A DNA stretch of 64,000 bases, taken from positions 20,803 to 84,802 of the forward strand of contig JAJDCG010000001.1 of NCBI GenBank assembly GCA_029260965.1, written 5' to 3'. The notes beneath the pieces were generated by a model that saw nothing but the letters and a program-made list of their open reading frames with translations, was not told where the DNA came from and did no database searches. Shown here piece by piece: positions 1-63,772 of the stretch. The DNA is from Candidatus Levyibacteriota bacterium (lineage in GTDB: Bacteria; Patescibacteriota; Microgenomatia; Levybacterales; UBA12049). Positions within the stretch are counted from its first letter, which is position 1. The number at the start of each line of letters is the position of its first letter. The position numbers and the translations under genes were made by a program.

Positions 1-264
1 CGAAACTTTAGCGAAAGAAAAATCCCTAGCATACAATAACTGTCCAGTCATCTTTACATGGATTGCAATACTGTAATCATTATCTAGATCTATTAACAGG
101 CCTTTACCAAATCTTCTCACCCTCTGAATTTTGGCACCTTTGCACATGCTTGTCTCTCCTGAAAAAATGCGTCTCAATCGAACATGAACATCTTCAATTT
201 CGTGATCAATTAAATATTTTTGAAGACCCAATCTGATTGTCTCAACCTCAGGTAATTCCGGCAT
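1..264 (-). CDS. Formamidopyrimidine-DNA glycosylase (Fpg/Nei family), N-terminal part only; gene runs off the window edge
   Basis: Reverse-complement translation from ATG at 262-264 gives MPELPEVETIRLGL..., the canonical Fpg/Nei N-terminus. Absent from ORF track because truncated by window edge. Confidence 0.6.
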   Translation of the reverse strand, partial: MPELPEVETIRLGLQKYLIDHEIEDVHVRLRRIFSGETSMCKGAKIQRVRRFGKGLLIDLDNDYSIAIHVKMTGQLLYARDFSFAKVS

Positions 265-38682: not shown

Positions 38683-39091
38683 GGGGATGAATTGATTCGA
38701 CGAGAAACGTACCTTAAAAACTGCAAGCCGGCATTGAATCAAAGCCGTAAAACTGATTCAAAAAATAAATGCTAAAGAACGCATTTCAGCTTTGAAAGCT
38801 GAAGCACGAGCAATCGTTGCTGAACTTTCAAGCGGTTTTCAGCCTAACTACGCAGTAGTCTAAGCTCTAAGCCTGTTCATATAAGTCTTTCTCAACGGGA
38901 TTGTATGGGCATAAACACAGTTGGGAAAAAAATAAAAAGTTTGGTTTCACTTTTTATTGAATTTATCAGACCTAGGCTTTAAAATTCCTGTCAATTGGAT
39001 AATTTAAAGTTGAATTTAATAATTGACTATGCTTGTAGACGTTAAAAGATAATTTACTCGGACTCGATGTCACTCATCGACATCTCCACCA
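38683..39091 (+). ncRNA. ssrA: tmRNA (ssrA)
   Basis: 5' GGGGAUGAAUUGAUUCGACG matches conserved tmRNA 5' end; acceptor GGGGAUG pairs with CAUCUCC + ACCA, giving G3:U70 (alanine identity); T-arm UCGAU-GUCACUC-AUCGA; candidate tag ORF ends ...SSGFQPNYAVV-stop at about 38890; directly downstream of smpB. Confidence 0.65.
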
Positions 39092-44629: not shown

Positions 44630-44716
44630 GGAGGGATCGCATAGTGGTCTAGTGCGCGGGCTTGGAAAGCTCGTATGGTCGAAAGACTATCGGGGGTTCG
44701 AATCCCCCTCCCTCCG
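44630..44716 (+). tRNA. tRNA-Ser (anticodon GGA)
   Basis: GGAGGGA...CGGGC-TTGGAAA-GCTCG...long variable arm...GGGGG-TTCGAAT-CCCCC-TCCCTCC-G. Confidence 0.8.
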
Positions 44717-44758
44717 CAACTTGACAACACTATCAAAATACCTCACACTAAAATAGCT

Positions 44759-47011
44759 ATGCTCTCTGCCCGCAAAGTCTTCTTATCTTTTTGTTTGTTT
44801 TTAGTTACATTTCTTGCAGCTCCATCCTTATCTTTTGCCCAATTACCAACATCCAATCTTAATCCAGAAGTCCCACGCAACCAACACACCCTCGCACAAT
44901 CAACAATGATCGAAATAATGTCTGCAGTCATTTGCCAAATGACAGGCATAGATCCACTTTATCCAGAACAGGGTTGTCTAGGGTTCAATACAGAAACAAA
45001 AAAGTTAGGACTTATACCTCCAGAGTATGATGATAATGGCAAACTTCAGGCAGGAGGGATGTTGGGGGGCACATCGGATATGATTGCAGCACTTTATACA
45101 CCAATTACATCTACTACAGAATTTGTGCACTATATGACGCGCGATTTTGGAATCGTAAAAGACGCTAATGCACAGGCAGGATATGGTTTTCAAGCACTCA
45201 GTCCAGTACTTGCTGTCTGGGAAGTTGTCCGTAACGCAGCCTACACCCTTCTGGTGCTTGCATTCGTTTTCATTGGCATCGGCATTATGCTCAGGGTCAA
45301 AATCGACCCCAGAACAGTTATGGGTATTCAAAACCAAATCCCTAGAGTCATAATTGCAATACTTCTTATCACCTTTTCCTATGCAATCTCTGCTGTGCTG
45401 ATTGATATGATGTGGGTCACAACATATGCAGGAGTAAACCTGCTCACAAACGCCCAGGGAGAAAGTATCAAGGTTGATTCCTGTAAGTCCACAAACAACA
45501 AAGTAGGAATAGCAGAACAAGTAAATAAAAATATTCTTCAGACACCAATGACCTTCTTCCATCAAGTATTTGCTGAATGCGACGACAGCGAACAGGAGGG
45601 AGTTTTACAGGGAAGGGGATACCTACAGGGCAACAACAGGGACGGCGGATTTCATGTAATGACCAAAGCAATAGGGGGTGCTACGGGACAATTGATTAAT
45701 AATACTGTAAGAAGTATTTTTCTTGACGAAGACGATGAATCAAGAGACTGTGGTTTGCTCAGTACGCTGGGGAATCCAATCCAGTGTGTTAAAAAGGGCC
45801 TGATTAATGGACTTGGTTTTTTTGCAAGCCTTCTCACAACTATCATCATCTTTACAGTCCTCCTTACCACGCTTTTTAGAATCTGGTTTATGCTTCTGAA
45901 GGCGTTTGCCTATACTCTTATCTACACAATCACCGGACCCATCTATATCGCGTTTGGGCTTCTACCTTCAAAACCGCTTGGATTTGAAAAATGGCTTCGT
46001 TCAATATTTGCAAACCTTGCGGTTTTTCCTCTGACTGCTTTTCTATTGGTAGGAGCCAGGCTTATGGTTGGTCTTTATGAAAACGCCTCAACTACTGCGT
46101 TCACACCACCGCTTCTTGGGAATACCGCAAACACGAACTATGGTGTTTTAATTGCACTAGGCATCCTTCTCCTAGGGCCTGCAATAGGAGACATCCTACG
46201 AGACAAGATGGGTGCACAAAATCTGAAAACACCTGGCATTGTCAAAACAGGACTGATACTTGGTGCTGCACCAGTTGGGCAGCTTGCCAATAGAATAAAA
46301 GCCAATGCCACAAGACGCGATAATGCAGGAAATCCAATCGGCAGCTTTTCAGCTGGCGTGGAGCGCAGCACTTCTGCTGCCAAACAATCACTTGGAAAAA
46401 TACCGATTATAAAAAGTCTAGGAGGAGAAAAATATGCCATTAATGAAGCTGAAAAACGCACCAACAGGCAGCGCTATGGAATGGCCGCAACCAATAAACA
46501 AATCCTTAAAAACAACGAGCATTTTGGTCTGGAAAAAGTAAAAGGTAAAGCAAAACTCAAAAACGGAAATACTGTCCAAAGTGCTAGCGATTATCGAAAG
46601 TGGGTAGGTGAAATGAGCACGGATGATAGAAAAAAACACATACAAGACGTGATGGGTGGCAGGCGCTTGGGCGCACATGGTTGGTACGGAGACGAACACG
46701 CATCAAGAACTGGAGGAGAAAGGGGATCAGAAGGTAGCAGCAACCAAAATAGCAGCACAAACATAAACACTCCTCATGTAACCATAAGGGCAGGAAGCAT
46801 CGAGGGTCTGCATGAACGTATGGATGAAAAATTAAGAAACAGCACGCCTGAAGCAAGAGAACGATTCCAAAACAACTATCATGCAAAAACTGCTAATAAG
46901 TTCATCAACAAAGATCAATCCTCTTACAGCACCGAGGAGCGAGAGGAAGCAAAACGTGTTCTCGAGGAAATACTCAGCGAAGAAAACGGGGATGGGAACA
47001 ACTCTGCTTGA
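44759..47011 (+). CDS. Large polytopic membrane protein with signal peptide; possible VirB6/TrbL-like T4SS channel component
   Basis: Signal peptide MLSARKVFLSFCLFLVTFLAAPSLSFAQ, at least 6 TM helices, long hydrophilic C-terminal tail. The track start at 44675 overlaps tRNA-Ser, so I use the ATG at 44759. Confidence 0.35.
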   Translation: MLSARKVFLSFCLFLVTFLAAPSLSFAQLPTSNLNPEVPRNQHTLAQSTMIEIMSAVICQMTGIDPLYPEQGCLGFNTETKKLGLIPPEYDDNGKLQAGGMLGGTSDMIAALYTPITSTTEFVHYMTRDFGIVKDANAQAGYGFQALSPVLAVWEVVRNAAYTLLVLAFVFIGIGIMLRVKIDPRTVMGIQNQIPRVIIAILLITFSYAISAVLIDMMWVTTYAGVNLLTNAQGESIKVDSCKSTNNKVGIAEQVNKNILQTPMTFFHQVFAECDDSEQEGVLQGRGYLQGNNRDGGFHVMTKAIGGATGQLINNTVRSIFLDEDDESRDCGLLSTLGNPIQCVKKGLINGLGFFASLLTTIIIFTVLLTTLFRIWFMLLKAFAYTLIYTITGPIYIAFGLLPSKPLGFEKWLRSIFANLAVFPLTAFLLVGARLMVGLYENASTTAFTPPLLGNTANTNYGVLIALGILLLGPAIGDILRDKMGAQNLKTPGIVKTGLILGAAPVGQLANRIKANATRRDNAGNPIGSFSAGVERSTSAAKQSLGKIPIIKSLGGEKYAINEAEKRTNRQRYGMAATNKQILKNNEHFGLEKVKGKAKLKNGNTVQSASDYRKWVGEMSTDDRKKHIQDVMGGRRLGAHGWYGDEHASRTGGERGSEGSSNQNSSTNINTPHVTIRAGSIEGLHERMDEKLRNSTPEARERFQNNYHAKTANKFINKDQSSYSTEEREEAKRVLEEILSEENGDGNNSA

Positions 47012-50000: not shown

Positions 50001-50311
50001 TGTTTTTCTGCCTTCTGATACTCCTCTTTGGAGCTTGCATTTCCTATAAAGGGTTTTTCTTTGCGGTTGATAAATTCTCTAATTTGATAGTAAAGATCTC
50101 TTGTTCCTGCATCTTGCCGGATTTCATCAAGGCTTCTACCATGATTTTCTTGCACAAATTCATCCCAAGCTTGATATATTTCTCTTGTCTCACTGTTTCC
50201 TTCAAGAACTGCTGCACCTGCTTCTGACATACCTCTATCATATCGACTGGCAGACTGTGGTGTCAATTTAATTTCATGCTCCATAATGATTGGATTGTAA
50301 TCAAAACCCAT
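47036..50311 (-). CDS. Very large hypothetical soluble protein (1091 aa), no recognisable motif
   Basis: Uninterrupted ORF, no signal peptide/TM, embedded between VirB6-like gene and T4SS-like cluster on opposite strand. Confidence 0.5.
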   Translation of the reverse strand: MGFDYNPIIMEHEIKLTPQSASRYDRGMSEAGAAVLEGNSETREIYQAWDEFVQENHGRSLDEIRQDAGTRDLYYQIREFINRKEKPFIGNASSKEEYQKAEKQKKILTSEEERRFKEIMENEELSNEAVLASTHRQLYEIEEKVKAFTEQERLEGGGDEPVPGEVLRSEKNLPYAREGASEVEQKAARKSWRKEDWSEYGWPTEKIVEVGEELIKNLHVSDDETRMLLEMFLARGRKPDELISSIKTAMAAYKRETGEEIDHSSSNENLRKKYKILTGEHDRWLDDDKKGVAISLDLPEEWVRRLVFPKALLKTGRNATGNLNIEEYDASPDTIEELAWRMMHSTSHDKWGIADKFPLLEMRIVTKMEKGHKVVDAERSKYYVNEGNMVEWVRNKMYEMYDLNPDDPHNFFEEVSLARIGYGGTLTNLMSMFANPTGGFFKSEDGETRYNDLYAQWIKEAWVLSTLLTQTAQLKKVRADGEKFKETITEMMAGSTLTKDALGKNLMSHMMLFPNEFKSSRKGEPLYSDSDVGAAYNKMYRVYDALSDFSKLQEILGQDSNFFKRETWEKGLMKILGESTKSTGEKEVQAFWGFETHEQFVKAFDKNGQITTKSNADNFVKFINFFVQKNENKKVVLPLREVMKATVAEQFHLRTKTGDEHEINLKFADLLSYGMTAPALIWARNDVYEPSVTIPGRAMNLSAYRVKVLKKGDPGGYYPGTFQEKALVTDTWRGVNTVHFTVDKEGRRHYTTAKEQFDETDIMKTAQERQLQKYRKKIEEMRRQGASEAEIEKEENGLRFLTRYFQEQYQKMTGRIAFNENALFNWANDQLGKGLDMYDHIMSAKEEFDFKNFTEHHPVQGPVFQKEVFIQDFQKKLVTPYRYLISDYGSLDYSKKDRYLDQEASLTAGEAIWRDMTLGEHMFGYDLLNSSSFWMRDKKGKVVKDVDGRIKIDYNKLNDPKHMKLLVRRAVLTELASKFVSFRSYSMTDSRYNEAYFLTVADALKTLPKDILGSEFSLGDVRLIPGYYEQEEMQWFGNITKTSLLRSTLRSALKEAFLGQRGSPDSRIGLATYLAVLGTLLKGAIQTSEGR

Positions 50312-50397
50312 TCAGTCCACTTTATTTTTATTTTATAGAAACATTACAAAATATTAAAAAAGTTGTGCTATATAAGCAGAACAATTACAATAGCCTC

Positions 50398-51723
50398 ATG
50401 GGACCAGAACGTTTTGAATCTATATATCCCGATACTGTTCGTTCAGAAGAGATAAAAAAAATAATATCTTATGTAAAAGAAGGAAAGTCTACGCAACTCA
50501 TAAGCATACCTGGTGCTGGACGATCATCTATACTTGGTCTTCTTTCCCACAATGATGCTATTAGAAAAAAATATCTCGGAGACAAAAAAGATATTCATTT
50601 TGTGCTTGCCAATTTTTCTGAGATTAGAAAACGACCCCTCTTCGACGCAATAAAATTTCTATTTCTGAGCCTGACCAACTCATTAAAAGAGAAAAAAATG
50701 AACGAATACAATAAGATTAACTCACTATTTAAAGAAAATCTTGCTTATAATGATGAGCTTGTACTTTTTCAGGCTCTGAAAGAAGCCATTGACTATCTAA
50801 CAATTGAAAGAAAAACAAAAATTGTTTTCTTGTTTGATCGTTTTGATGAATACATTCCGTATTTGACACCAGAATTTTTTACTAATTTGCGCTCCCTCAG
50901 ACAAAGAGCTAAATACAGCCTTTCTGTTGTTTTTTCAATCAACAGACCACTTGAAGACGCTCTTGAGCCTACATTATTGTCAGATTTCTACGAATTTGTG
51001 GCAGGCAATCAAATCTATGTAGGGCTTGTGGATCTTGAAATGACAACCTTCAGGGTTAGGTATATTGAAAAAATTTCCCATAAAAAACTGCCATCAGGAG
51101 TATTTGAACAGATTATGAAACTCACTGGTGGTGATGGAAGATTGGTAAAGCTGTCTGTTGAAATTCTATTGTCAAATCCTAAGCCTAAGAATCTCAACGA
51201 TTTTTTACTGTCCCAGGAATCAATCAAAAGCGCTTTAAGCGAATTATGGCGCTCTTTTCTCCCTTCAGAGCAATCAGACCTCATAGAAGGAAACTTTGAT
51301 AATGAAAATATAAGAACTCATCTTGAAAACGTGGGTGTTGTTAAAAATAAAAAAATACAAATACCTCTTTTCTCAGAATTTATAAAAACACAGTATCAAA
51401 AACTCAAAAATGGAAAAAATCAGTTTATGTATGATGAGAATACAAACAGCATTAAAAATAATGATGCCATATTCTCTGACCAACTAACATCTTCAGAATT
51501 CAGGCTGCTCAAATTCCTCATCCTCAACAAGGATCGAATTATTAATAGAGAAGAGATTATAAATTTTGTCTGGTCTGATCAAAAATCAACTGCAGGAATT
51601 ACTGACCAGGCAGTAGATCAGCTAATTTTTCGCTTGCGACAAAAAATTGAAGAGAACCCGAATAGCCCCATTCATCTTCAAACAATCAAGGGACGAGGAT
51701 TTCGCTTTTTACCAAAATGCTAA
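50398..51723 (+). CDS. Putative regulator: N-terminal P-loop/AAA-like ATPase domain + C-terminal OmpR/PhoB-type winged-helix DNA-binding domain
   Basis: Walker-A-like ISIPGAGRSSILGLL, Walker-B-like KIVFLFDRFDEY; C-terminal LTSSEFRLLKFLILNKDRIINREEIINFVW...QAVDQLIFRLRQKIE...IKGRGFRF is a trans_reg_C signature. The track start at 50290 overlaps the divergent gene, so I use the ATG at 50398. Confidence 0.55.
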   Translation: MGPERFESIYPDTVRSEEIKKIISYVKEGKSTQLISIPGAGRSSILGLLSHNDAIRKKYLGDKKDIHFVLANFSEIRKRPLFDAIKFLFLSLTNSLKEKKMNEYNKINSLFKENLAYNDELVLFQALKEAIDYLTIERKTKIVFLFDRFDEYIPYLTPEFFTNLRSLRQRAKYSLSVVFSINRPLEDALEPTLLSDFYEFVAGNQIYVGLVDLEMTTFRVRYIEKISHKKLPSGVFEQIMKLTGGDGRLVKLSVEILLSNPKPKNLNDFLLSQESIKSALSELWRSFLPSEQSDLIEGNFDNENIRTHLENVGVVKNKKIQIPLFSEFIKTQYQKLKNGKNQFMYDENTNSIKNNDAIFSDQLTSSEFRLLKFLILNKDRIINREEIINFVWSDQKSTAGITDQAVDQLIFRLRQKIEENPNSPIHLQTIKGRGFRFLPKC

Positions 51724-51766
51724 CCAATCAATTGCATTTTTATCTCCAACTTAGTAATCTAGACTT

Positions 51767-52093
51767 ATGAGCATTTTGTCACAAGCCAAGCTTCCGAAGC
51801 CACCTTCAAGTATTCCCAGCGTGCCAACTGGTCAATCAGGTCTATCATATACTGGAGAGATTTTAAGAAACGCCATTACAATCATGATAATAATTGCTAT
51901 AATCTTGTCTGTTATTTTTCTTATCATCTCAGGTATCAAGTGGATCACATCAGGCGGAGACAAAGAAAAACTCCAAGCTGCAAAAGCAAGACTAACATGG
52001 GCCATTGTTGGCCTGATAGTTGCCTTTGTGGCATTTTTCTTAGTAAATATTTTGGGCTACATCTTTGGAGTAGAGTTGCTTGGATTCTTTTAA
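51767..52093 (+). CDS. VirB2/TrbC-like pilin-family small membrane protein, paralog 1
   Basis: Two hydrophobic helices flanking conserved IKWITSGGDKEKLQAAKARLTWAIVGL shared with the next two ORFs. Confidence 0.4.
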   Translation: MSILSQAKLPKPPSSIPSVPTGQSGLSYTGEILRNAITIMIIIAIILSVIFLIISGIKWITSGGDKEKLQAAKARLTWAIVGLIVAFVAFFLVNILGYIFGVELLGFF

Positions 52094-52145
52094 ACTTAAG
52101 TATTGACAAAAACAAAACAAGTGTTCTAGTATAAAGACAACCTAT

Positions 52146-52538
52146 ATGAAAAAACTAGTAAGCGCAGCCGTGGGAGTAGTATCTTATCTTTCGTTAGCAG
52201 GTGGTGCTTTTGCGCAGACGGTTGATCCCTGTCCAAAAGGTGAATTCAACGCACTTTGTTCAAAATTTAATGCAAGTGATACTGGAAGCATTATTGGCAC
52301 AGTGCTAACCTTTCTTCTCATCGCAGCTGTAATTGTTGCGCTTTTCTTTCTGATCTGGGGGGGCATCCGTTGGATTACATCAGGCGGAGACAAAACCAAG
52401 GTTGACTCAGCCAGAGGGCACATAGTTGCAGCAATCGTAGGTCTACTAATTGCTTTTGTTGCTTACTTTATAGTACAAATAATACTGAACGTATTCGGTC
52501 TTGGCCCTGTCAGTAGCCTAGAGCTTCCAACTTTCTAA
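52146..52538 (+). CDS. VirB2/TrbC-like pilin-family small membrane protein, paralog 2 (signal peptide)
   Basis: Signal peptide MKKLVSAAVGVVSYLSLAGGAFAQ, Cys pair, TM, IRWITSGGDKTKVDSARGHIVAAIVGL, second TM. Confidence 0.45.
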   Translation: MKKLVSAAVGVVSYLSLAGGAFAQTVDPCPKGEFNALCSKFNASDTGSIIGTVLTFLLIAAVIVALFFLIWGGIRWITSGGDKTKVDSARGHIVAAIVGLLIAFVAYFIVQIILNVFGLGPVSSLELPTF

Positions 52539-52589
52539 TCTAAATCTTCTTGTGTTTTACTTTTCCCTCTGATATTCTGAATTAGTCTT

Positions 52590-53000
52590 ATGAAAAAAAT
52601 CCTTCACTTCTTTCTGCTTTTTACGACAGCTAGTCTTGCACATCCATCAAATGCACACGCGCAGCTTTTTAAAAACTGGGATCAGGTAGTATCTGGATGT
52701 GTAATTGATGGAGTGCCCACTCTCCGATGCTTACCTGCTGTATTTGGAAACCTCATAAATGCAGGCATTGCTTTTGTGGGTGTTGTTGCTGTAATTCTCA
52801 TAGTTTACTCTGGAATAAGACTTATAACCTCAGGTGGAGATCCAAAAAAAGTTGCAGGAGCTCGTCAAATTATGACCTATGCCATAATTGGCTTAGTACT
52901 CGTGCTCTCATCCTTTGCTATAGTATTGTTCATCGGCTATGCTACCGGTAGCAGCGACTGTATTGGAGACCTAAACAACATAGCCTCTGGATGTAAATAA
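52590..53000 (+). CDS. VirB2/TrbC-like pilin-family small membrane protein, paralog 3 (signal peptide)
   Basis: Signal peptide MKKILHFFLLFTTASLAHPSNAHAQ, Cys pair, TM, IRLITSGGDPKKVAGARQIMTYAIIGL, second TM. Confidence 0.45.
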   Translation: MKKILHFFLLFTTASLAHPSNAHAQLFKNWDQVVSGCVIDGVPTLRCLPAVFGNLINAGIAFVGVVAVILIVYSGIRLITSGGDPKKVAGARQIMTYAIIGLVLVLSSFAIVLFIGYATGSSDCIGDLNNIASGCK

Positions 53001-53102
53001 CAAATTCTCCAAGTTTTCACAGACCCAGCCTCAAAGAAAATTTTTTTGATCTACTTTGAAAGAGTTGCAAACATATTTTTCACGTTATACACTTTTTTTA
53101 CT

Positions 53103-54356
53103 ATGGACAACCACCCTATACCCCAAGACGTAACAGGCTTCAAATTCAAGCTTATTGGCAGCATGACAGTAAAACAATTCGCCTACGTTGCAGCAGGCGT
53201 CATTACCTCAGTAATTTTATACTATCTTCCCCTGAAGGGTATTGCAGGGGGCCTCATAAAGGCATTGTTAATACCCGTATCTTTTGGTAGTGGAATTATG
53301 ATTGCCTTTCTTCCAATTGATGGAAGACCGATGGATGTAATGCTGGGTAATTTTATAAAGGCAGTTTTTTCACCCAATCAATACCTTTATCACAAAAACG
53401 GTCGAAGATTTAGCTTCATGACCATCTCGCTACCAACACGAGGCGCTTTCCAAAACACGCAACAAACGATGCAGGATCACCCAACCCATACAAACACCAA
53501 AAATAAACAGCTCAGAGAATTTCTTGACAAGAATAAAAGTCCTGAAATAAAAAATAACCTTGACAACAAAGAGCTTGCTTTTCTCAAATCCTTGGCAAGC
53601 AGCTATACCCAGACACCTGCATTACAACAGCATGCAGCAACACAACCACCCATACAGCAACCCCCACAACCTGCGTCTATACAAAAAGCTGAAAATCAAA
53701 CCATCCAAGAACCAATTGCTCGACCAGTGCAAAAAACTACTCCTGCTGTTCAGACAGCACCCGTGCAGCCACCATTAACAGCGCGGGTCGCAAATCCTGA
53801 ACCTACAAAAAACACAAATCCGCAAAACAATAAACCAGAACAATTAAAACAGCAGATCCAGAATGCCCATGATCAAAAAAAACTGCTTGAGAATGAACTA
53901 TCAAAACTTAAAAATCAGCTCCAAGAACACAAACCAGAAACACCTACTACAGCAGTAAGCCCATCTTCTGCACCCATACACACAACCCCAAACCCCACAC
54001 ATGTTCGGTCAATTCCTAAAGAAAGCGTACAAAAAATGGGAATCCTCGTCCCTGATTCTCCTAATGTTGTTGTGGGAATAGTAAAAGACCCAAGAGGAAA
54101 CATACTACAAAACATACTTGTTGAAATAACCGATAAGGATGGTAACGCTGTACGCGCTTTCAAAACTAACGCTCTCGGACAGTTTGCCTCAGCCACCCCT
54201 TTACCCACAGGCTCCTATACGGTTACACTTGAGGATCCCAGAAATCAACACAAGTTTGACTCAATTAAGATAGCTGCCAGAGATCAGGTTATGCTACCAA
54301 TTGAAATAATATCCTATGACAAACGGGAAGAATTAAGAAGAGACTTATTTAACTAA
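53103..54356 (+). CDS. PrgI/TcpE (VirB3-like) family membrane protein with Q/P-rich linker and C-terminal beta-sandwich (carboxypeptidase-regulatory-like) domain
   Basis: N-terminal FKFKLIGSMTVKQFAYVAAGVITSVILYYLP...IPVSFGSGIMIAFLPIDGRPMDVMLGNFIKAV resembles PrgI-family two-helix module; position directly upstream of VirB4. Confidence 0.45.
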   Translation: MDNHPIPQDVTGFKFKLIGSMTVKQFAYVAAGVITSVILYYLPLKGIAGGLIKALLIPVSFGSGIMIAFLPIDGRPMDVMLGNFIKAVFSPNQYLYHKNGRRFSFMTISLPTRGAFQNTQQTMQDHPTHTNTKNKQLREFLDKNKSPEIKNNLDNKELAFLKSLASSYTQTPALQQHAATQPPIQQPPQPASIQKAENQTIQEPIARPVQKTTPAVQTAPVQPPLTARVANPEPTKNTNPQNNKPEQLKQQIQNAHDQKKLLENELSKLKNQLQEHKPETPTTAVSPSSAPIHTTPNPTHVRSIPKESVQKMGILVPDSPNVVVGIVKDPRGNILQNILVEITDKDGNAVRAFKTNALGQFASATPLPTGSYTVTLEDPRNQHKFDSIKIAARDQVMLPIEIISYDKREELRRDLFN

Positions 54357-54359
54357 AGT

Positions 54360-55046
54360 ATGGCACAAAAAATTAACGCGTCTACGCAAAAATTTACAGA
54401 GATTGTTGACTTTGTTGATAATATAGTTGTTCTAGAGGGTGGAAACGCCTGTTTAATCATTGAAATCACTGCAAGTAACTTTGCATTGTTATCAAAAAGA
54501 GAACAAGACTCAAGAGTGGCCTCATATGCATCCCTTCTCAACTCGCTTTCTTTTCCTATACAGATTCTAATACGCAACAAGCGGATGGATATATCAAACT
54601 ACTTAAACGAATTGGATGAGGCAAAGAAAAATTCAAAGAACGATAGGCTGGCAACATACATTAGCTACTACCGCGATTTCGTTGAGGAGATAGTAACTGT
54701 AAATGTAGTTCTGAACAAATCTTTCTTTATTGTGGTGCCATACTCTTTTCTAGAAGGCAACATGCCCAATGCAAGCCAGCCACAACAAGCAAAAAAACAA
54801 AAAGATACTGTTTCTAAGTCTCAGAAAATTGCAGAAAATGCCAAAAGAGCTTTAGAGTCCAAGTCATCAACCGTTATGGCTCAGCTTCAAAAATTTGCTG
54901 TATCTGCAAAAATCCTCGAAAAAGACGAGCTGGTTAAGCTCTTTTATGACATATACAACCAGGGTGACGCACTGAATGTTGAACAAGCAGAGCCAGACAC
55001 TCAGAATGCATTCGTTGCAACAGCAGGAGGAGGAGAAAATACATGA
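54360..55046 (+). CDS. VirB4 N-terminal-domain-like protein (possible split VirB4 or frameshift), coupled by ATGA overlap to VirB4 ATPase ORF
   Basis: VVLEGGNACLIIEITASNFALLSKREQDSRVASYASLLNSLSFPIQILI resembles the N-terminal segment of Gram-positive-type VirB4 ATPases; stop overlaps next start at 55043-55046. Confidence 0.35.
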   Translation: MAQKINASTQKFTEIVDFVDNIVVLEGGNACLIIEITASNFALLSKREQDSRVASYASLLNSLSFPIQILIRNKRMDISNYLNELDEAKKNSKNDRLATYISYYRDFVEEIVTVNVVLNKSFFIVVPYSFLEGNMPNASQPQQAKKQKDTVSKSQKIAENAKRALESKSSTVMAQLQKFAVSAKILEKDELVKLFYDIYNQGDALNVEQAEPDTQNAFVATAGGGENT

Positions 55047-57187
55047 AAATCCCATTTCTAAAAAACAAAGACACCCAAACACAGCCCACCACTCAGACAC
55101 CTGCACAAAACAACAAAATGGCTGTAAGTCAAAACACTCAACAATCCACAAAAGCTCTTGAAAAACTTGAAAAGGGCCTAACCTCAGTAATCGACATTAT
55201 TGCTCCATCTTCAGTAGAAGTAGATTTCCGTTATATTAGAGTTGGTGAGACTTTTTACACTACTCTTTTTATCGCTGGCTATCCACGCTATGTTTCTCCT
55301 GGCTGGCTTACTCCAATTGTTGACTATGATCACACCCTTGATATATCCATGTTTTGCTATCCTACCTCGTCGACAGACATTCTTTCAGATCTAAAAAGAA
55401 AAATCGGAGAGATGCAAGCAACCCTTTCATCAGATGCTGAACAGGGAAAGGTTGCAGACCCCTCTGTTGAAGCTGCCCTTGAGGATGCCCTTGGCCTTCA
55501 GGAGGAATTAGCAAAGGGGGTTGAACGGTTTTTCCAGTTTGGATTTTACATAACAGTTTCAGCCGAAAGCCTAAATGAACTCAACCAAACAGTAAAAGAA
55601 CTAAAAACCACACTTTCATCCCTGCTTCTGACAGGCAAAACCTCCACACTCCAAATGGAGGAAGGCTTCAAATCCACACTTCCAATCGGCCAAGACAAGC
55701 TCTATATCACACGGAACATGGATACAACATCTCTCGCATCAACCTTTCCTTTTACATCTGCTGTTCTCACCCAAAACAAGGGTGTTATGTATGGCGTGAA
55801 TCAACAAAACGGATCCCTGATAATCTTTGATAGATTTTCACTAGAAAATGCCAATGAAATCGTTCTTGGTAAGTCTGGTGCTGGAAAATCTTATGCCATA
55901 AAGCTGGAAATTGCCCGACAATTTATGCTCGGCACTGAAGTGATAGTTATTGATCCAGAGGGAGAATATGAAGTGTTAACTCCTGTTCTAGGCGGTGAGG
56001 TTGTAGATTTTTCTTCAAATTCTGAAATAAAAATTAATCCTTTTGATCTTGCCGATGTCTATGAAGAGGGGGAAAATCAACTTGGACTTAAAATACTCTC
56101 ACTTCATGGCCTCTTAAAAATAATTACTGGAGAGCTTGATGCTGAACATGATGCAATCATGGATCGTGCACTTATTGAAGCGTACAGACAGAAAGGCATC
56201 ACTACTGACCCAGCAACTCAAAAAAAAGAACCGCCATTGATGGAGGATCTTTACAAAACCCTTCTCGGCATGGAAAATCAGCCGGCTAAGGATCTTGCAT
56301 ACAGGCTTGAAAAATTCATCAAAGGATCAGCCCAGGGCATATTTAACCAGCAATCAAATTTCGAGATCAATAATCCCCTAACTGTTTTCTCGATAAGAAA
56401 TCTTGAAGAAGAACTAAGACCTGTTGCAATGCACATAATTCTTGACTTTGTCTGGACCAGAGTCAAAAAATCACTTAAAAAGCGTATTTTAATACTTGAC
56501 GAGGCATGGTACATGATGAAATATCAAGACAGCGCATCATTTGTCTACTCAATCGCCAAAAGAGCACGTAAATATTATTTAGGAATGACTACTGCAACAC
56601 AAGATGTGGAAGATTTTCTCAAAAATGAATACGGGAAGGCAGTTCTAACTAATTCTTCAATTCAGATTCTTCTCAAACAAGGAACAGCCGAGGTTGACAT
56701 GATATCTGAAACTTTTTATCTATCTGAAGGGGAAAAAGCACTTCTTCTATCTTCTGATGTTGGAGAAGGACTTTTCTTTGCAGGACAAAACCATGTTGTT
56801 ATGAAGGTTTTTGCAGCTCCTTTTGAACACGAATTAATCACCTCTAATCCTGAGGAGGTTTCAAAAAGACAGGAAGCAGACGCGGAATATGCAAAAGCTG
56901 AGGCTAACGCTGCACAAGTGGAACAAGCCACTGCTCCTACTGAGACTTCGCAAGCATCAGCCCCATTATCTCAGAAACCAATACAGGAATACACACCCCC
57001 ACAAGAAACACAAACCCAATCTCAAACGTCTTCAATCCAGGCATCGGACCCCATTCCTCCACAACAAGCCCAAAACACACCTGCTAACACAGATGTTGTG
57101 AACAACCCACCAACACCACAACAACCCATTACAAGCGCATACACACCACCACAGCCACCCACCACAAACCCTACCAACGAGTCCTAA
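55043..57187 (+). CDS. VirB4/TrbE/CagE-family T4SS ATPase with P/T/Q-rich C-terminal tail
   Basis: FIAGYPRYVSPGWLTPI segment, Walker A LGKSGAGKSYAIKLEI, Walker B RILILDEAWYMM, arginine-finger region; 714 aa. Confidence 0.8.
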   Translation: MKIPFLKNKDTQTQPTTQTPAQNNKMAVSQNTQQSTKALEKLEKGLTSVIDIIAPSSVEVDFRYIRVGETFYTTLFIAGYPRYVSPGWLTPIVDYDHTLDISMFCYPTSSTDILSDLKRKIGEMQATLSSDAEQGKVADPSVEAALEDALGLQEELAKGVERFFQFGFYITVSAESLNELNQTVKELKTTLSSLLLTGKTSTLQMEEGFKSTLPIGQDKLYITRNMDTTSLASTFPFTSAVLTQNKGVMYGVNQQNGSLIIFDRFSLENANEIVLGKSGAGKSYAIKLEIARQFMLGTEVIVIDPEGEYEVLTPVLGGEVVDFSSNSEIKINPFDLADVYEEGENQLGLKILSLHGLLKIITGELDAEHDAIMDRALIEAYRQKGITTDPATQKKEPPLMEDLYKTLLGMENQPAKDLAYRLEKFIKGSAQGIFNQQSNFEINNPLTVFSIRNLEEELRPVAMHIILDFVWTRVKKSLKKRILILDEAWYMMKYQDSASFVYSIAKRARKYYLGMTTATQDVEDFLKNEYGKAVLTNSSIQILLKQGTAEVDMISETFYLSEGEKALLLSSDVGEGLFFAGQNHVVMKVFAAPFEHELITSNPEEVSKRQEADAEYAKAEANAAQVEQATAPTETSQASAPLSQKPIQEYTPPQETQTQSQTSSIQASDPIPPQQAQNTPANTDVVNNPPTPQQPITSAYTPPQPPTTNPTNES

Positions 57188-57206: not shown

Positions 57207-58691
57207 ATGGATGATGAAGAAAGACAGGATGACGCTCCTGAAGAGGAACCCCAGGATGAAGATGGCGAAAACGATCAAGGAGTTAGCCAACCTGGTGCTC
57301 CAGGTCGTGGGGCCCGTGTATCACAAAAGGGTGGCAGAATAAAAAATGCTCTTAAAGAAGGTGCAAGGGGACTCAGCAAGGGTAAGGGAAAAAACGCAGC
57401 AACAGACGCATTGAAAGGATTCAGGCATGGCAGTATAAACAAAGATGATGAAGACAGTAAACATAAACGACCGTCCCTGAGGCAAATCCGTCGTTTTAGC
57501 AAAATGGCAAAAGGACTTAAGGGCGCAGGTGGCGCAGCTGGTGGAGGAGCAGCAGCTGGTGGAGAAGCAGTAGCAGCAGGCGCAGCAGCAGCTGGTGCAG
57601 GAATGCCTGTTGCATTAATTGTATTAATCGTGGTTTTTGTAATTATTCTGCTTTTTGGCTTTATATTTATGTTTAATAATCCCGAACCCTCAATCCTTTC
57701 AATAACTAAAACTGGCCCAGAAACAGCTTCCTCAGGAGAGGAAATAACTTATCAGATAAATGTCTCATATCCCGACACGGCAGAAAATATAATAATAAAA
57801 GATCGTATTCCTTCTGAAACCGACTATGTATCCTCCTCTCCCTCTGCTAGATTTGACGCTTCTACAAGGACAGCTACGTGGAGCCTAAGCGAGTTTATTT
57901 CCCCTATAAATAATGTGAACACCACTCTAAACATCAGCCTGCGCATAAAAGATGGGCTAACAAATGTCAACATAATCAACCTGTCCGAGGGTGAAGTTAT
58001 TGGTGGCGGAACTGACCCAGGCACCGGAACTCCGACAGGCGATATCGCAAAACTATTGCCCCAACCCCTACCCCCAGACTCTCCCTCGGTTCTAAACCGC
58101 AAATCAGCAGTCATACTATCAACACAAAACACCACGAACAAGGAAGCATACGAAAAAGCCTCTCTAGCCACAGGCTTACCCTGGCAGGTTTTTGCAGGCA
58201 TACACTACAGAGAGGGAGGGGCTGCTCCAAACAAATCTATTGTCAGTGGTAGAACTATTGGCTCCCGAGAACCAGATGTTGAAAATGGACCAGGGTGCAG
58301 CGTGCATAATACAAAAGGAGCTACTGATGGTCTTGCTGAAAAACTCAGCAGTGGGGGCTGTGGTTTTAGTTCTCTTGCTGATTCAGCAATCTATGCAGGA
58401 ATTCTTTTGAAAAAAAAGGTTAACGGTAACCTGAATAGCTACGAGGACCTTGTAAAAGCTTTGTCAAGATACAATGGCGGTGGTAACGCAAACTGTGGAA
58501 AGACACCCTATACTGGTTGTCCAAAACTCTTCTACGGAGAAGACGACACTTATGTCGTAAACCTTTTTGATGAAAAGCACGCAACTATGTATGTTGTTTA
58601 TTGTGCTGATCACACCTTGTGTAATCCTCCCAAAACAGACTCTCGACCAGGCGCAGCAACAGCTATAAAATGGGTTTCGCAGTCAAATTAA
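57207..58691 (+). CDS. Surface/membrane protein: acidic N-terminus, Gly/Ala-rich segment, TM, DUF11 (conserved repeat) domain, Cys-containing C-terminal domain
   Basis: ITKTGPETASSGEEITYQINVSYPDTAENIIIKDRIPSETDYVSSSPSARFDASTRTATWSL fits the DUF11 repeat pattern; single TM VALIVLIVVFVIILLFGFIFMF. Confidence 0.4.
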   Translation: MDDEERQDDAPEEEPQDEDGENDQGVSQPGAPGRGARVSQKGGRIKNALKEGARGLSKGKGKNAATDALKGFRHGSINKDDEDSKHKRPSLRQIRRFSKMAKGLKGAGGAAGGGAAAGGEAVAAGAAAAGAGMPVALIVLIVVFVIILLFGFIFMFNNPEPSILSITKTGPETASSGEEITYQINVSYPDTAENIIIKDRIPSETDYVSSSPSARFDASTRTATWSLSEFISPINNVNTTLNISLRIKDGLTNVNIINLSEGEVIGGGTDPGTGTPTGDIAKLLPQPLPPDSPSVLNRKSAVILSTQNTTNKEAYEKASLATGLPWQVFAGIHYREGGAAPNKSIVSGRTIGSREPDVENGPGCSVHNTKGATDGLAEKLSSGGCGFSSLADSAIYAGILLKKKVNGNLNSYEDLVKALSRYNGGGNANCGKTPYTGCPKLFYGEDDTYVVNLFDEKHATMYVVYCADHTLCNPPKTDSRPGAATAIKWVSQSN

Positions 58692-58727: not shown

Positions 58728-59291
58728 ATGTATGCTTTAAAAGGTAAGTTTATTCTTTTTGCTTTAGCTATTATTCTCATAATAATCTTGACTGTTCTTG
58801 TGTTTTTTTCTTTTTCACAAACAGACAATCAAGACGACACAGGAACCACGCCCATAAAACAAACGGGTTCGGAAAACAAAATTCCTGCTTTTAAAACAAT
58901 CACCAACATACCAACAACTACTGAAGGCATAGACGAAAACTCTATAGAAGTAAAAAATTCGATTAAAGAGATAGAAAATCTCTATCCACACTTACCATAT
59001 TCTGAAGAACTCGTCTCATCCACAGGAGTAGATCTATCAATACTCATTCCTTCCAGGGAGTTTCAAACAAACAGTTTTACTTTGTCTGTTGAGGTATTTG
59101 GAATTGACTATAACATGCCTGTTGATGATCCTAATTACAGCAATATGCAAGCCTCTTTTCTGGAAGGAGCAGAGAAAATTTTTTCATTCATAAAAAGCAA
59201 GAATGTTGATCCCAAAAAAATTATCTTCTCCTGGGGTGATCGATTGTTTATACAGGAAAGGGCACAGGAGTGGTTAAAGGATGTTCAATAA
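58728..59291 (+). CDS. Bitopic membrane protein (N-terminal TM + periplasmic domain), T4SS-associated hypothetical
   Basis: Topology only; within T4SS-like cluster. Confidence 0.35.
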   Translation: MYALKGKFILFALAIILIIILTVLVFFSFSQTDNQDDTGTTPIKQTGSENKIPAFKTITNIPTTTEGIDENSIEVKNSIKEIENLYPHLPYSEELVSSTGVDLSILIPSREFQTNSFTLSVEVFGIDYNMPVDDPNYSNMQASFLEGAEKIFSFIKSKNVDPKKIIFSWGDRLFIQERAQEWLKDVQ

Positions 59292-59294
59292 ATT

Positions 59295-59993
59295 ATGAAG
59301 AAAATATCTGTTTTTATCATCACATTAATTTTTGTTTTCGTGAGTCTTTTTTTGCCGCTTAAAAGCTTTGCACAAAGCTCTGTAAGTTGTTGGGTAACTA
59401 AAATAGGCACTCCTAGTGAAGAAGCTGTGCTCCCTTTTCCATGTAGGGGAGCCGAAGATATCAATGGGCTGATTTATCCCCAACCATTAACAAAACACCC
59501 GACTAGAGCCGGCTATTATCAACTTCCCCCTTCTACTGATGGTTCTTACCGTATTGAGACGTGTCCTGGGCAATCATGGGGCTCACAGGAGTTGGTGGGC
59601 GTACTCTATACTGTTGCTAAAAGATGGAAAGAACTACACCCTAGAGGAAGATTAAACATAGGTGATTTGAACGCTTTTGGTCATAAATCACACAACTGGG
59701 GACGTGCAGTAGACCTTGACGCAACCACAACAGGTTCAGATTGGGTTGCTGACTTCACAAAGGGCAATTACAACAGGAGTGCAACAATTGAACTTGGCAA
59801 GCTGTTTGTGGATACGAATCTAATTTTAAATATTTGGTATAATGATCAAGCCGTAAACAATGAGGTATTGGCCTATTCAAGAGCTACAGGAAAGTCTTTA
59901 GGAATGAATATGAAACCCATAGTTGGACACAACAATCATTTCCATGTCGACATCAACACAGAAAAGCTTGGTTTTTGGGTTCCGGGATGTTAA
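59295..59993 (+). CDS. Secreted LAS-type zinc metallopeptidase, peptidase M15 (MepA-like murein endopeptidase)
   Basis: Signal peptide; H-x-x-H...D (FGHKSHNWGRAVDLD) and HxH (HNNHFHVDI) zinc-ligand pattern characteristic of MepA/VanY/M15 enzymes. Confidence 0.55.
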   Translation: MKKISVFIITLIFVFVSLFLPLKSFAQSSVSCWVTKIGTPSEEAVLPFPCRGAEDINGLIYPQPLTKHPTRAGYYQLPPSTDGSYRIETCPGQSWGSQELVGVLYTVAKRWKELHPRGRLNIGDLNAFGHKSHNWGRAVDLDATTTGSDWVADFTKGNYNRSATIELGKLFVDTNLILNIWYNDQAVNNEVLAYSRATGKSLGMNMKPIVGHNNHFHVDINTEKLGFWVPGC

Positions 59994-60595
59994 ATATGAG
60001 AAATTTTATAATAAAATATAGGTTTTTTTTAATCCCCATTGTCCCTCTTTTATTCGTTTTTTTTATGTTTTATTTTATAATATCCAACTCGCCAGCTCCA
60101 CACTCAAACACAGTACCCTCTCAAGCACCCAATAACTCAGACAACACAATACAAACAGATCAACAACTAGTTAATGATTTTGACGTACTTGAAGGAAACG
60201 AAGAACCAATTGGCACAGAAGGTCTAATACGTACAGAGAGTCTTTCTGATGGTACTGAAAAAAAATATTTTTTATCTTCTGTTCCTGGTCGGGAGAGAAT
60301 AATAACAACCAAAGGAAAAGATAATATTATTTTTGAATCCATACCTATAGGTGCAGATTTTTCTGTGAATTTAAATGACTTCACACAGGTATATGGTGAT
60401 GCGCGTTTTGTTTTCCTGGGATCTTCTTTTTATGGAGGATCTGCAGAAACTCACATCTACGCGGACGAGGGTATTGCTATAATCGTAAACCCTGCAACAG
60501 GACAGGTTTATGAGCAGCATGTTTTCATACCGGTTAGAACAGAGGATTATGTGAGGCTCTTTGGAGAAGATATCTCTTCTAGTTCTGGACCCTGA
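59975..60595 (+). CDS. Bitopic membrane protein, possible VirB8-like T4SS component
   Basis: N-terminal TM FLIPIVPLLFVFFMFYFIIS followed by about 170-aa soluble domain; assignment by topology and context only. Confidence 0.3.
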   Translation: MGSGMLNMRNFIIKYRFFLIPIVPLLFVFFMFYFIISNSPAPHSNTVPSQAPNNSDNTIQTDQQLVNDFDVLEGNEEPIGTEGLIRTESLSDGTEKKYFLSSVPGRERIITTKGKDNIIFESIPIGADFSVNLNDFTQVYGDARFVFLGSSFYGGSAETHIYADEGIAIIVNPATGQVYEQHVFIPVRTEDYVRLFGEDISSSSGP

Positions 60596-63442: not shown

Positions 63443-63772
63443 ATGTTAAAGAAGAGCCACCGTTTACCAGCAGGACAACGTCTGAAAAATCCTATTTTTC
63501 AAAACACAACATACTTTCTGCTTAAATATTCAAAAAACAAAAAAGAAGTTAGTAGATTTGCTTTTGTGATAAAAAAGAGTGTGGAAAAAACAGCAGTTGG
63601 CAGAAATAGAGCAAGGAGGGTGTTGAGATCATGCGTTGAAGAGACTCTTGGAGAGATAAAAACAGGATACGATATGATTTTTTTTATTCAAAAAGGTATA
63701 ATAGGCAAGAAGCAAGAGGAAGTCTGTGATCTTTTGAAAAAGCAGATGTTAAAAAACAATTTGATAAAATGA
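63443..63772 (+). CDS. rnpA: Ribonuclease P protein component
   Basis: Basic 109-aa protein with RNR motif AVGRNRARRVLR; follows rpmH. Confidence 0.8.
   Translation: MLKKSHRLPAGQRLKNPIFQNTTYFLLKYSKNKKEVSRFAFVIKKSVEKTAVGRNRARRVLRSCVEETLGEIKTGYDMIFFIQKGIIGKKQEEVCDLLKKQMLKNNLIK

Follow-up and report, generated by a model that had tools for sequence, protein, structure and literature searches.

Much of bacterial diversity falls within the Patescibacteria, most of which live attached to host cells. "VirB2 arrays" have been described in 383 Patescibacteria assemblies, especially from Microgenomatia (Quinonero-Coronel et al. 2025, Microb Genom; PMC12102498); these pilin arrays comprise 2-11 genes near virB4 and dnaA, whose products are 25% identical on average and at most 54% identical (PMC12102498). 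In Southlakia epibionticum ML1 the pilin series is essential, and the T4SS has no recognisable relaxase or coupling protein (Wang et al. 2023, Cell; PMC10633639). No pilus or filament has been observed so far for any Patescibacteria T4SS (PMC12857230). Published arrays have been described as variable only, and host-range or antigenic versatility has been suggested for them (PMC12102498, PMC10633639). The VirB2 paralogs of Bartonella and Anaplasma have been proposed to be antigenic or host-adaptive variants, a proposal tentatively extended to the Patescibacteria arrays (PMC12102498).

The window analysed here, 64,000 nt of DNA taken as a whole, contains a chromosomal, origin-proximal T4SS locus of a Candidatus Levyibacteriota (Patescibacteria/CPR) bacterium, with three tandem pilin genes that we call p1, p2 and p3. 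We take the Levyibacteriota to belong to Microgenomatia, where arrays are especially abundant. The locus is like the published arrays in having tandem, low-identity genes of Pfam family PF18895 beside PrgI/VirB3 and TrsD genes and a VirB4 gene akin to monoderm MPF-FATA; in lying beside dnaN (60579-61688), dnaA (61838-63211) and rnpA (63443-63772); and in the absence of a relaxase domain from a Pfam scan of the 16 neighbouring ORFs (44.7-63.8 kb). Nothing essential sets it apart; it is a further clean example of the published system and so leaves the known picture unchanged. The new detail is that the array of this lineage is a fixed trio of orthologous classes. We consider it probable that these are three anciently diverged classes of VirB2-like pilins (PF18895) belonging to the origin-proximal T4SS of Levyibacteriota.

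The gene order is a candidate VirB6-like gene, a regulator, p1-p2-p3, a PrgI/VirB3-like gene, a TrsD-like gene and virB4, then dnaN and dnaA, with the pilin trio ~2 kb upstream of virB4; the genes from the VirB6-like candidate to the 206-aa gene described below are on the forward strand. The first, at 44756..47011, encodes a polytopic membrane protein with a signal peptide and ~5 TM segments, syntenic in relatives, and is a candidate divergent VirB6/TrbL channel subunit: TrbL/VirB6 (PF04610) is matched by 5 of 12 orthologs (best E = 5.4e-5) and not by the window copy, and an hhalign comparison with the VirB6-like protein from the T4SS of a Pontibacillus plasmid reaches 90% probability across 34 columns. 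The true start of the window gene is uncertain because a tRNA (44630-44716) covers the earliest ATG of its ORF (44675). Directly upstream of the pilins, at 50365..51723 (start taken from the Logan gene call), is a candidate regulator with a P-loop-like N-terminal domain and an OmpR-type winged-helix C-terminus (Trans_reg_C, 66.5 bits). The regulator gene adjoins p1 in most relatives, mostly on the opposite strand, and may control the pilins. Downstream of them, at 53103..54356, is a 417-aa PrgI/VirB3-family membrane protein (PF12666, 35.7 bits) fused to a carboxypeptidase-regulatory-like domain (PF13620, 33.4 bits); its start (ATG 53103) was set from orthologs beginning MDQHPIPQ and the Logan gene call. 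The TrsD-like protein (54360..55046, 228 aa) resembles the N-terminal part of VirB4 and is syntenic in nearly all related loci, and its NCBIfam matches are sub-threshold (VirB4_plasma region 102-235, E = 1.6e-8; TrsD NF041427, E = 7.6e-5). Its end overlaps the start of the gene for the VirB4-type T4SS ATPase (55043..57187, 714 aa), which scores 392.8 bits against NCBIfam conju_CD1110 (cut-off 325) and 94 bits against the Pfam TraG P-loop. Four further genes may, from their position, belong to the T4SS: a DUF11-repeat protein with one TM segment (57207..58691), a 187-aa single-TM protein (58728..59291), a secreted protein of endopeptidase-like type, weakly similar to M74 and a possible VirB1 analogue (59295..59993), and a 206-aa single-TM protein (59975..60595). 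Only the M74-like and 206-aa genes among these recur in several relatives. A coupling-protein homolog is distant from the cluster (18887-21280), and no VirB5 tip protein and no cyclisation or acetylation enzymes were recognised.

The pilin genes occupy 51767..52093 (p1, 108 aa), 52146..52538 (p2, 130 aa) and 52590..53000 (p3, 136 aa) of the forward strand. A sequence-only reading of this DNA had called them tandem paralogs, and its call held: their alignment has 22 invariant columns, with pairwise identities of 42% (p1-p2), 29% (p1-p3) and 28% (the remaining pair). All three pass the gathering threshold of Pfam PF18895 (T4SS_pilin; 26.6 bits), p1 scoring 41.6 bits, p2 32.8 and p3 34.4 (E = 1e-10 to 7e-8), so that their similarity is not due to chance, and precomputed annotation of the proteins likewise gives PF18895. 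The core I[KR][WL]ITSGGD that had been reported is indeed shared, although the motif in its literal form had the wrong spacing and fits none of the three; one that fits all is I[KR][WL]ITSGGD..K.{10}AI[VI]GL, in which p3 has IGL, not VGL. Outside p1, p2 and p3, the hexapeptide ITSGGD is present in no six-frame ORF of the window that is 50 aa or longer. A homolog search yielded at least 4,532 homologs, and PF18895 is present in all 120 best listed.

The same reading had assigned p2 and p3 a VirB2/TrbC pilin topology, to be checked by profile search. The TrbC/VirB2 profile PF04956 is matched by p1 (20.1 bits) and p2 (18.5 bits over residues 3-112) below its gathering score of 27.9 bits, and not at all by p3, while 45 of the 120 best listed family members match it at E <= 0.01 (best 1.1e-6). 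Judged by these scores, the tie of the window pilins to PF04956 is a remote relationship and not membership. Matches to NCBIfam NF045849 are also sub-threshold (E = 2e-7 to 2e-4, 21-30 bits versus a cut-off of 40). Like the Gram-negative TrbC/VirB2/TraA pilins, those of the window are small, have two hydrophobic helices, a basic loop and, in p2 and p3, a predicted cleavable leader, and are encoded with VirB3 and VirB4 homologs. Unlike them, they score below gathering, belong to a monoderm envelope, include the leaderless p1 and, in p2 and p3, bear Cys pairs. To our knowledge a Cys pair is no hallmark of VirB2/TrbC. The core of the assignment is right: because PF18895 is passed, 45 of the 120 relatives match PF04956 and T4SS genes surround the trio, p1-p3 are VirB2-like T4SS pilin-family proteins.

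Two-helix membrane proteins of other kinds, such as holins, bacteriocin-immunity proteins or transporter subunits, might look pilin-like by hydrophobic composition only. The pilins do have low-scoring, compositional Pfam matches (DUF6112, DUF2165, TctB and others), and fold searches are uninformative. Yet all three proteins exceed a curated threshold, the conserved polar loop ITSGGD..K means that the likeness is not merely hydrophobic, and linkage to PrgI, TrsD and VirB4 is kept across dozens of genomes as well as in the T4SS of a Bacillota plasmid, all of which makes an unrelated origin scarcely credible. Holins and other small membrane families were rejected on the sub-threshold, compositional nature of their matches and on the conserved T4SS linkage.

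The three proteins differ outside their common core. p1 has no signal peptide and no Cys, and begins with a Pro/Gly/Ser-rich N-tail of ~26-35 aa before its two-helix hairpin. p2 has a predicted Sec-type signal peptide (residues 1-23, AFA↓Q), a Cys29/Cys38 pair, the hairpin and a conserved C-terminal L.LP; p3 has a predicted signal peptide (residues 1-24, AHA↓Q), N-terminal Cys37/Cys47, the hairpin and C-terminal Cys124/Cys135. The p2 and p3 leaders, found by reading the sequence, consist of MKK, a hydrophobic stretch and A-x-A↓Q, and the A-x-A-Q site is kept in orthologs, in agreement with the earlier claim of signal peptides in p2 and p3 and, by implication, of none in p1. One Cys pair had been claimed for each of these two, which is right for p2, but p3 has four Cys in two pairs. 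The claimed hairpin is confirmed by hydropathy and, in the p1 and p2 models, by AlphaFold2, with helices at 27-61 and 66-100 in p1 and at 43-78 and 83-116 in p2 (block-mean pLDDT about 86-97; overall pLDDT of the p2 model, 79.7). The loop between the helices is polar and basic, with a net charge of +2 to +3. Foldseek matched neither solved conjugative pilins nor any other PDB entry significantly, and a profile search of PDB sequences matched nothing. The fold itself, a helical hairpin, is generic. Pilins of type IV pili have a class III leader (short, basic, ending in Gly), Glu5 in a hydrophobic N-terminal helix, and a fold made up of one such helix with a globular head. They were ruled out since the leaders here are of the Sec-type A-x-A kind, the G↓F(T/M)L.E motif is absent and the fold is a two-helix hairpin.

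We retrieved 48 related loci, mostly from Levyibacteriota. In 24 of these species-level loci, as in the window, exactly three pilins stand in tandem and their order is the same, and for 73 of the 75 pilins in this set the nearest neighbour is the ortholog in the same position; orthologs share 47-54% identity, versus 27-36% for paralogs. The p2 class is the best conserved (mean ortholog identity, 54%). Orthologs also keep the class pattern, p1 being without a signal peptide and usually without Cys, p2 having a signal peptide and one Cys pair, and p3 usually having a signal peptide, with two Cys pairs; the outside segments, Cys pairs included, are conserved within each class. With the same classes in the same order in 24 loci and the window, and same-position neighbours for nearly every pilin, the triplet is ancient and not a recent amplification. 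The three-class set is common, not universal: copy number ranges from 1 to 7 among relatives, a single one having seven. The pilin adjoining the PrgI-like gene is always p3, which is the sole pilin within ~10 kb of virB4 in four loci (L001, L034, L036 and L046); in another, L024, the sequenced contig stops just upstream.

Promoter-like elements on the forward strand precede each pilin gene. That of p1 (51732..51760; TTGCAT, 17-nt spacer, TAATCT) ends 6 nt before the ATG, which supports the p1 start codon and predicts a leaderless p1 mRNA. p2 has a near-consensus sigma-70-type promoter (52103..52132; TTGACA, 18-nt spacer, TAGTAT) whose end lies 13 nt short of the ATG, and p3 an element (52550..52578; TTGTGT, 17-nt spacer, TATTCT) that stops 11 nt short of its ATG and is a diverged copy of the p1/p3-type promoter. 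The pattern of this promoter type, CTTGnnTT ... T[TA]G(n)TAnn[CGT]T, precedes 11/25 p1, 17/25 p3 and 0/25 p2 orthologs and is met with at 0.04% of random positions, counts that are descriptive because the pattern was defined post hoc from the same sequences; the element lies at a median of 6 nt before the ATG. TTGAC[AT]-17..19-TANNNT stands upstream of 22/25 p2 orthologs versus 0.14% of random positions, and only p2 has the near-consensus promoter (TTGACA/TATGAT). A generic promoter/terminator scan of 50200-55200 found 16 sites versus 12.8 in shuffles, no excess, so the promoter argument rests on ortholog conservation; by that measure each pilin gene has its own conserved predicted promoter.

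The sequence-only reading took the triplication as a sign of antigenic or functional diversification. In the antigenic version the pilins would be interchangeable major subunits, and the array would have been amplified and diversified for surface variation, whether for antigenic or phage evasion or for adaptation to host strains. Low within-array identity (28-42% here; a published average of ~25%, PMC12102498) and the varying copy number fit this, and a separate promoter per gene permits alternative expression in principle. The pilins also change non-synonymously 2-3 times faster than VirB4, TrsD and DnaN; their rate of divergence, however, is similar to that of the PrgI-like membrane protein and not higher. 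Gene-wide dN/dS, where computable, is about 0.05-0.17, a rough range used qualitatively (dS is at or near saturation, many pairs are uncomputable and the measure is blind to site-specific diversifying selection), and pN is far below pS; gene-wide selection on the pilins is purifying. Between paralogs no DNA repeats able to drive inter-copy recombination were found except one exact 18-nt p1/p2 match. Against surface variation stand as well the orthologous classes with their fixed order and the retention of class-specific features, among them the Cys-paired outside regions, and we regard it as improbable. Bartonella and Anaplasma are comparable in that several divergent VirB2 genes lie in tandem in the T4SS locus of a host-dependent bacterium, whereas the window copies represent long-established orthologous classes on which selection is purifying; the lineage-specific, recent and accelerated copies of the Bartonella/Anaplasma type are not what the trio presents. 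The triplication is not a recent amplification such as antigenic variation would call for. Orthologous ordered classes, purifying selection and separate conserved promoters support the other half of the claim, and functional specialisation of the subunits is favoured over antigenic variation.

The closest non-CPR relatives, the Mbov_0395-family "pilin-like conjugal transfer proteins" (PF18895/NF045849, the latter sub-threshold for the window pilins), come from Mycoplasma ICEs and Bacillota elements and share the hairpin with an ITS(G/Q)GD(P)KK loop. A tblastn search of plasmids with p2 gave only two weak matches, Pontibacillus and Embleya (unannotated). The Pontibacillus plasmid has two tandem PF18895 pilins upstream of VirB6-like, PrgI/TraL-like, CD1110-type VirB4 and peptidoglycan endopeptidase genes. 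Elements of this family differ from the window system in being annotated conjugal-transfer elements, the window system being chromosomal with no relaxase in the ORFs scanned, and the window array differs in its three classes, two of which have predicted disulfide-bearing outside segments. These relatives bear on whether a pilus is formed at all. The window proteins might be T4SS parts without an extended pilus, namely subunits of a membrane- or wall-spanning channel or stalk, or monoderm assembly factors; a possible precedent comes from conjugative elements of Mycoplasma and Bacillota, which have pilin-like proteins but no known pilus, and the Pontibacillus pair, in its CD1110-type VirB4 cluster, speaks for this reading too. 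Gram-positive T4SSs are usually called pilus-less (PMC10633639; PMC12857230), and Gram-negative VirB2 is needed for substrate transfer too (PMC12857230). Three classes, predicted outside disulfides and one strong promoter, however, fit a polymer of abundant subunits better than a low-copy channel, and the field tends, as speculation, to a pilus-like structure (PMC12857230). A short conduit and a long pilus are indistinguishable from the present data, and we hold the absence of an extended pilus to be rather unlikely, if still a serious alternative.

With the trio read as three specialised pilin classes, the system could work as follows. Going by their leaders, p2 and p3 would be exported by Sec and cleaved after A-x-A, and p1 would insert into the membrane without a leader. 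All three would lie in the membrane with both termini on the outer side and the positively charged ITSGGD..K loop facing the cytoplasm, and the outside Cys pairs would be joined as disulfides. The VirB4 ATPase would, by analogy with VirB2/TraA, extract the pilins from the membrane and polymerise them into what, again by analogy, may be a short pilus or a conduit through the wall that touches the host bacterium; the window pilins would in this way make a surface filament. Promoter quality and conservation make p2 the candidate major pilin, presumably an abundant one, while p1 and p3 would be scarcer, specialised subunits with a role in initiation, at the tip or in anchoring. The apparatus would serve the epibiotic lifestyle, in protein export or exchange with the host cell rather than in conjugation. 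We advance more tentatively, as a possibility that we lean somewhat against, that in Levyibacteriota the filament or conduit of the T4SS requires all three components, a highly expressed major p2 being combined with co-regulated minor p1 and p3. The distinct promoter type of p1 and p3 may perhaps be under the adjacent ATPase/winged-helix regulator.

The origin-proximal T4SS of Patescibacteria is essential in the sole species tested, and its pilin series distinguishes it from other monoderm T4SSs. Added here is a fixed trio with class-specific leaders, Cys patterns and promoters, which speaks against antigenic variation and leads to concrete, testable predictions on which subunit forms the structure. 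The presence of the same pilin-VirB6-VirB3-VirB4 module on a Bacillota plasmid bears on the origin of the pilins: PF18895 pilins may have entered Patescibacteria with monoderm MPF-FATA machinery and not have been co-opted from Gram-negative systems. If so, some Gram-positive T4SSs would also have VirB2-like subunits.

Three ORFs lie in tandem on the forward strand, p1 (51767-52093, +, 108 aa), p2 (52146-52538, +, 130 aa) and p3 (52590-53000, +, 136 aa), exactly where the sequence-only reading had placed them. They are separated by 52 nt (p1-p2) and 51 nt (p2-p3), and ORFs inside them in other frames or on the opposite strand are short and unsupported. The aligned proteins have 22 invariant columns, identities to p1 of 42% (p2) and 29% (p3), and the common pattern I[KR][WL]ITSGGD..K.{10}AI[VI]GL; a shared motif had been rightly noticed, but the string first written for it matches none of the three because its spacing was wrong. 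ITSGGD is absent from all other window ORFs of at least 50 aa. Two strongly hydrophobic segments, as had been claimed, flank the motif in each protein, one on either side. The N-terminus of p2 is MKKLVSAAVGVVSYLSLAGGAFA followed by Q, and that of p3 is MKKILHFFLLFTTASLAHPSNAHA followed by Q. The Cys pair attributed to both is found in p2 (Cys29 and Cys38), but p3 has four Cys (37, 47, 124 and 135); the p1 sequence has neither an N-terminal hydrophobic segment nor Cys.

An exact 18-nt match between p1 (51947-51964) and p2 (52377-52394), ACATCAGGCGGAGACAAA, encodes TSGGDK, although the two proteins are only ~40% identical. The chance expectation is 0.06 per window, even with up to 3 mismatches; the match was not reported by a general repeat search, and either codon constraint or a small tract of gene conversion might explain it. 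The p1 protein was found only in the Logan assembly of SRR15505512, while p2 and p3 are additionally listed with an NCBI source (a 549,591-bp contig), so p1 may have been missed in the NCBI annotation or given another start.

All three proteins exceed the curated threshold (26.6 bits) of PF18895, Type IV secretion system (T4SS) pilin, with 41.6 (p1), 32.8 (p2) and 34.4 bits (p3), which together with the T4SS linkage bears out their original interpretation as VirB2-like T4SS pilins. Among T4SS families the TrbC/VirB2 family proposed for the HMM check, PF04956, ranks second for p1 (20.1 bits) and p2 (18.5 bits), but both fall below its gathering threshold of 27.9. A profile search of a large protein collection gave at least 4,532 relatives, the best 120 of which all carry PF18895 and a few also PF04956. 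Scanned individually, 120 family members matched PF18895 in every case and TrbC in 45 (E <= 0.01, best 1.1e-6), with no other family close to these two. AlphaFold2 confidently models the anticipated two-helix hairpin both in p2 (helices 43-78 and 83-116, with the signal peptide forming a helix of its own before them) and in p1 (helices 27-61 and 66-100, preceded by a disordered tail). The connecting loop has a net charge of +2 to +3 in p1-p3, so by the positive-inside rule it would be cytoplasmic and both termini would lie outside.

Downstream of the pilins are genes for a protein of the PrgI/VirB3 family that includes a carboxypeptidase-regulatory-like domain (its true start is the ATG at 53103), a TrsD-like protein similar to the N-terminal part of VirB4, and the VirB4 ATPase (NCBIfam CD1110-family, 392.8 bits; cut-off 325). 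VirB4 is followed by genes for a DUF11-repeat protein, a secreted endopeptidase-like protein and two proteins with a single TM segment, and beyond them lie dnaN, dnaA and rnpA. On the upstream side are a candidate regulator (50365-51723, +), which is ATPase-like with a degenerate P-loop, GAGRSS, and an OmpR-type winged helix; a soluble protein of 1,091 aa encoded on the opposite strand; and a membrane protein that is polytopic (44756-47011, +). The regulator adjoins p1 in most relatives in varying orientation: the window and loci L017, L019, L031 and L047 have it on the + strand, all other relatives with the gene on the - strand.

In a survey of 3,035 Patescibacteria genomes with PF18895, PF04956 and other profiles, Quinonero-Coronel et al. 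(2025; PMC12102498) found VirB2-like pilins in 1,948 assemblies that also have VirB4. They describe the pilins as occurring together with TrsD, PrgI/VirB3 and a VirB4 whose clade is related to the monoderm MPF-FATA systems, with few relaxases and with dnaA, dnaN and rnpA nearby. The window locus agrees with this description point by point; the three-pilin feature is therefore already known, an instance of the published system. A 797-aa protein with a TrwB/VirD4-type coupling-protein domain (18887-21280, -; PF10412, 42 bits) lies ~30 kb from the T4SS cluster, in agreement with the reported pattern that T4CP homologs of Patescibacteria seldom adjoin virB4.

The conserved polytopic membrane protein at 44756-47011 looks like a very divergent VirB6/TrbL. 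Five of 12 orthologs match PF04610 (best E = 5.4e-5), and an hhalign match to the VirB6-like protein of a Pontibacillus plasmid T4SS has 90% probability over a short motif; the window copy itself has no Pfam match. Since VirB6 is reported to be scarce in Microgenomatia (PMC12102498), this candidate may be the missing subunit. The first ATG (44675) of its 778-aa ORF is probably not the true start because it overlaps a same-strand tRNA gene (44630-44716); the window also contains genes for a tmRNA (38683-39091) and seven more tRNAs.

Relatives were collected by scanning the VirB4 sequence against GTDB species genomes, which gave 48 loci, titled mostly Candidatus Levyibacteriota and some other Patescibacteria; several have evidently wrong bin names, e.g. 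"Gammaproteobacteria". Among L007-L010, L016, L018-L020, L022, L033, L040, L042 and L043, many public MAGs bear the title 'uncultured Gammaproteobacteria bacterium', and further titles are Sulfotelmatobacter, Acidiferrales, Limnocylindrales or Nanoarchaeia; their locus is clearly of Patescibacteria type, and the bins are probably mislabelled or contaminated.

When the pilin HMM was run on all ORFs of these loci, exactly three tandem pilins were found at the same place in 24 of the 48, as in the window, with the order VirB6-like, 1,091-aa protein, regulator, p1, p2, p3, PrgI, TrsD, VirB4, dnaN, dnaA kept. The nearest neighbour was the same-position pilin of another genome for 73 of 75 pilins, and pilins sharing a position are on average 47% (position 1), 54% (position 2) and 50% (position 3) identical, against 27-36% between positions; by sequence, then, the positions are orthologous classes. 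Class 1 proteins (~105-115 aa) lack a leader and usually also Cys, and their commonest N-terminus is of the type M(D/E)YLALTLPGG, from which window p1 has diverged. In class 2 the leader ends in AFA before Q, the Cys pair reads PC..LC and the C-terminus carries L.LP; in class 3, whose leader is missing in some genomes, the Cys pairs read C..VATL.C and, C-terminally, C...CK. In some relatives the class-3 gene, adjoining PrgI, is the sole pilin within ~10 kb of virB4, and in the more distant Patescibacteria, where VirB4 identity drops below ~60%, no more than one pilin lies within 10 kb. A groundwater Levyibacteriota locus (L027, 3225-7036) has seven tandem pilins, by best BLAST match one class-1-like, five class-2-like and one class-3-like; in this one genome it is apparently the class-2 gene that multiplies as the array expands. 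Proteins of 337-591 aa with a pilin-like hairpin occur upstream of the array in L019 (2676-3761), L020 (5421-6491), L022 (158-1171), L028 (415-1476) and L047 (2470-4245), and none in the window; they are reminiscent of the MMCAP2_0566 family (322 aa) of Mycoplasma ICEs, which p1 and p2 match weakly.

Arrays have been proposed to provide antigenic or host-range variation (PMC12102498), and the sequence-only reading had suggested antigenic or functional diversification. The Levyibacteriota array appears instead to be a fixed trio of specialised classes with no pool of recent variants, which counts against the variation idea and leaves the antigenic suggestion unsupported. Nei-Gojobori dN/dS in the closest pairs is 0.05-0.17 for the pilins, indicating only gene-wide purifying selection because dS is at or near saturation; pilin dN is close to the PrgI value and exceeds those of VirB4, TrsD and DnaN, being 2-3 times as high.

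Shine-Dalgarno sequences are largely missing in this genome: most genes lack one and carry a TATAAT-like box that ends 5-15 nt before the start codon, e.g. upstream of 2813-3454, 10764-12095, 26927-27997 and 36093-37949. This suggests widespread leaderless or very-short-leader mRNAs. Of 57 ORFs, 10 have a strict -35/-10 pair whose end lies no more than 20 nt from the start (2.8% at random positions). Upstream of p2, 22 of the 25 orthologous loci carry TTGAC[AT]-17..19-TANNNT (0.14% at random positions). Its typical form is TATTGACAA...TATGAT ending ~11-13 nt before ATG, and in the window it is TTGACA-18-TAGTAT (52103-52132). A different element, CTTGC(T/A)TTT ... TTTG(C)TA(C/G)GCTA, ends ~6 nt before ATG at 11/25 p1, 17/25 p3 and 0/25 p2 loci, by a pattern written after inspection of the sequences. 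Its conserved position supports the p1 start codon, and hence the lack of a signal peptide. We infer three separate, essentially leaderless transcription units, with expression highest for p2; the promoter differences between the classes point to a single major pilin accompanied by two minor ones that are co-regulated.

PF18895 also extends beyond Patescibacteria. NCBIfam gave sub-threshold matches to the Mycoplasma ICE "Mbov_0395 pilin-like conjugal transfer protein". The Pontibacillus sp. (Bacillota) megaplasmid NZ_CP062975.1 (L049, 8776-15090) has two tandem PF18895 pilin-like genes, followed by VirB6/TrbL-like, PrgI/TraL-like, 274-aa and CD1110-type VirB4 genes and then a peptidoglycan endopeptidase. 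The CPR pilin profile aligned with the first of these pilins by hhalign at 97% probability (E = 3e-11; loop YITSQGDPKK). The general view in the literature that Gram-positive T4SSs lack VirB2-like genes thus does not hold for all of them. Whether the pilins came with the monoderm machinery was left undecided in the 2025 paper (PMC12102498); the Mycoplasma and Pontibacillus relatives favour joint inheritance.

Beyond the family membership, hairpin fold, T4SS linkage, three-class conservation and separate promoters, which the data show, we propose a mechanism. Sec would export p2 and p3 for cleavage by signal peptidase I, p1 would insert independently of a leader, and the pilins would sit N-out/C-out with their disulfides on the outside. 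Driven by VirB4, they would be extracted and would polymerise to give a short pilus or conduit reaching the host cell, with p2 as the bulk subunit and p1 and p3 specialised. The main rival holds that p1-p3 are parts of a channel or stalk and never form an extended filament; a 2025 review calls a possible pilus an intriguing, unproven idea (PMC12857230). Predicted pilin subunits of the Southlakia epibionticum T4SS cluster are essential (Wang et al. 2023; PMC10633639). Under our pilus or conduit proposal the T4SS would serve epibiosis, not conjugation. The new content is modest: a fixed trio of pilin classes, class-specific promoters, and PF18895 beyond Patescibacteria.
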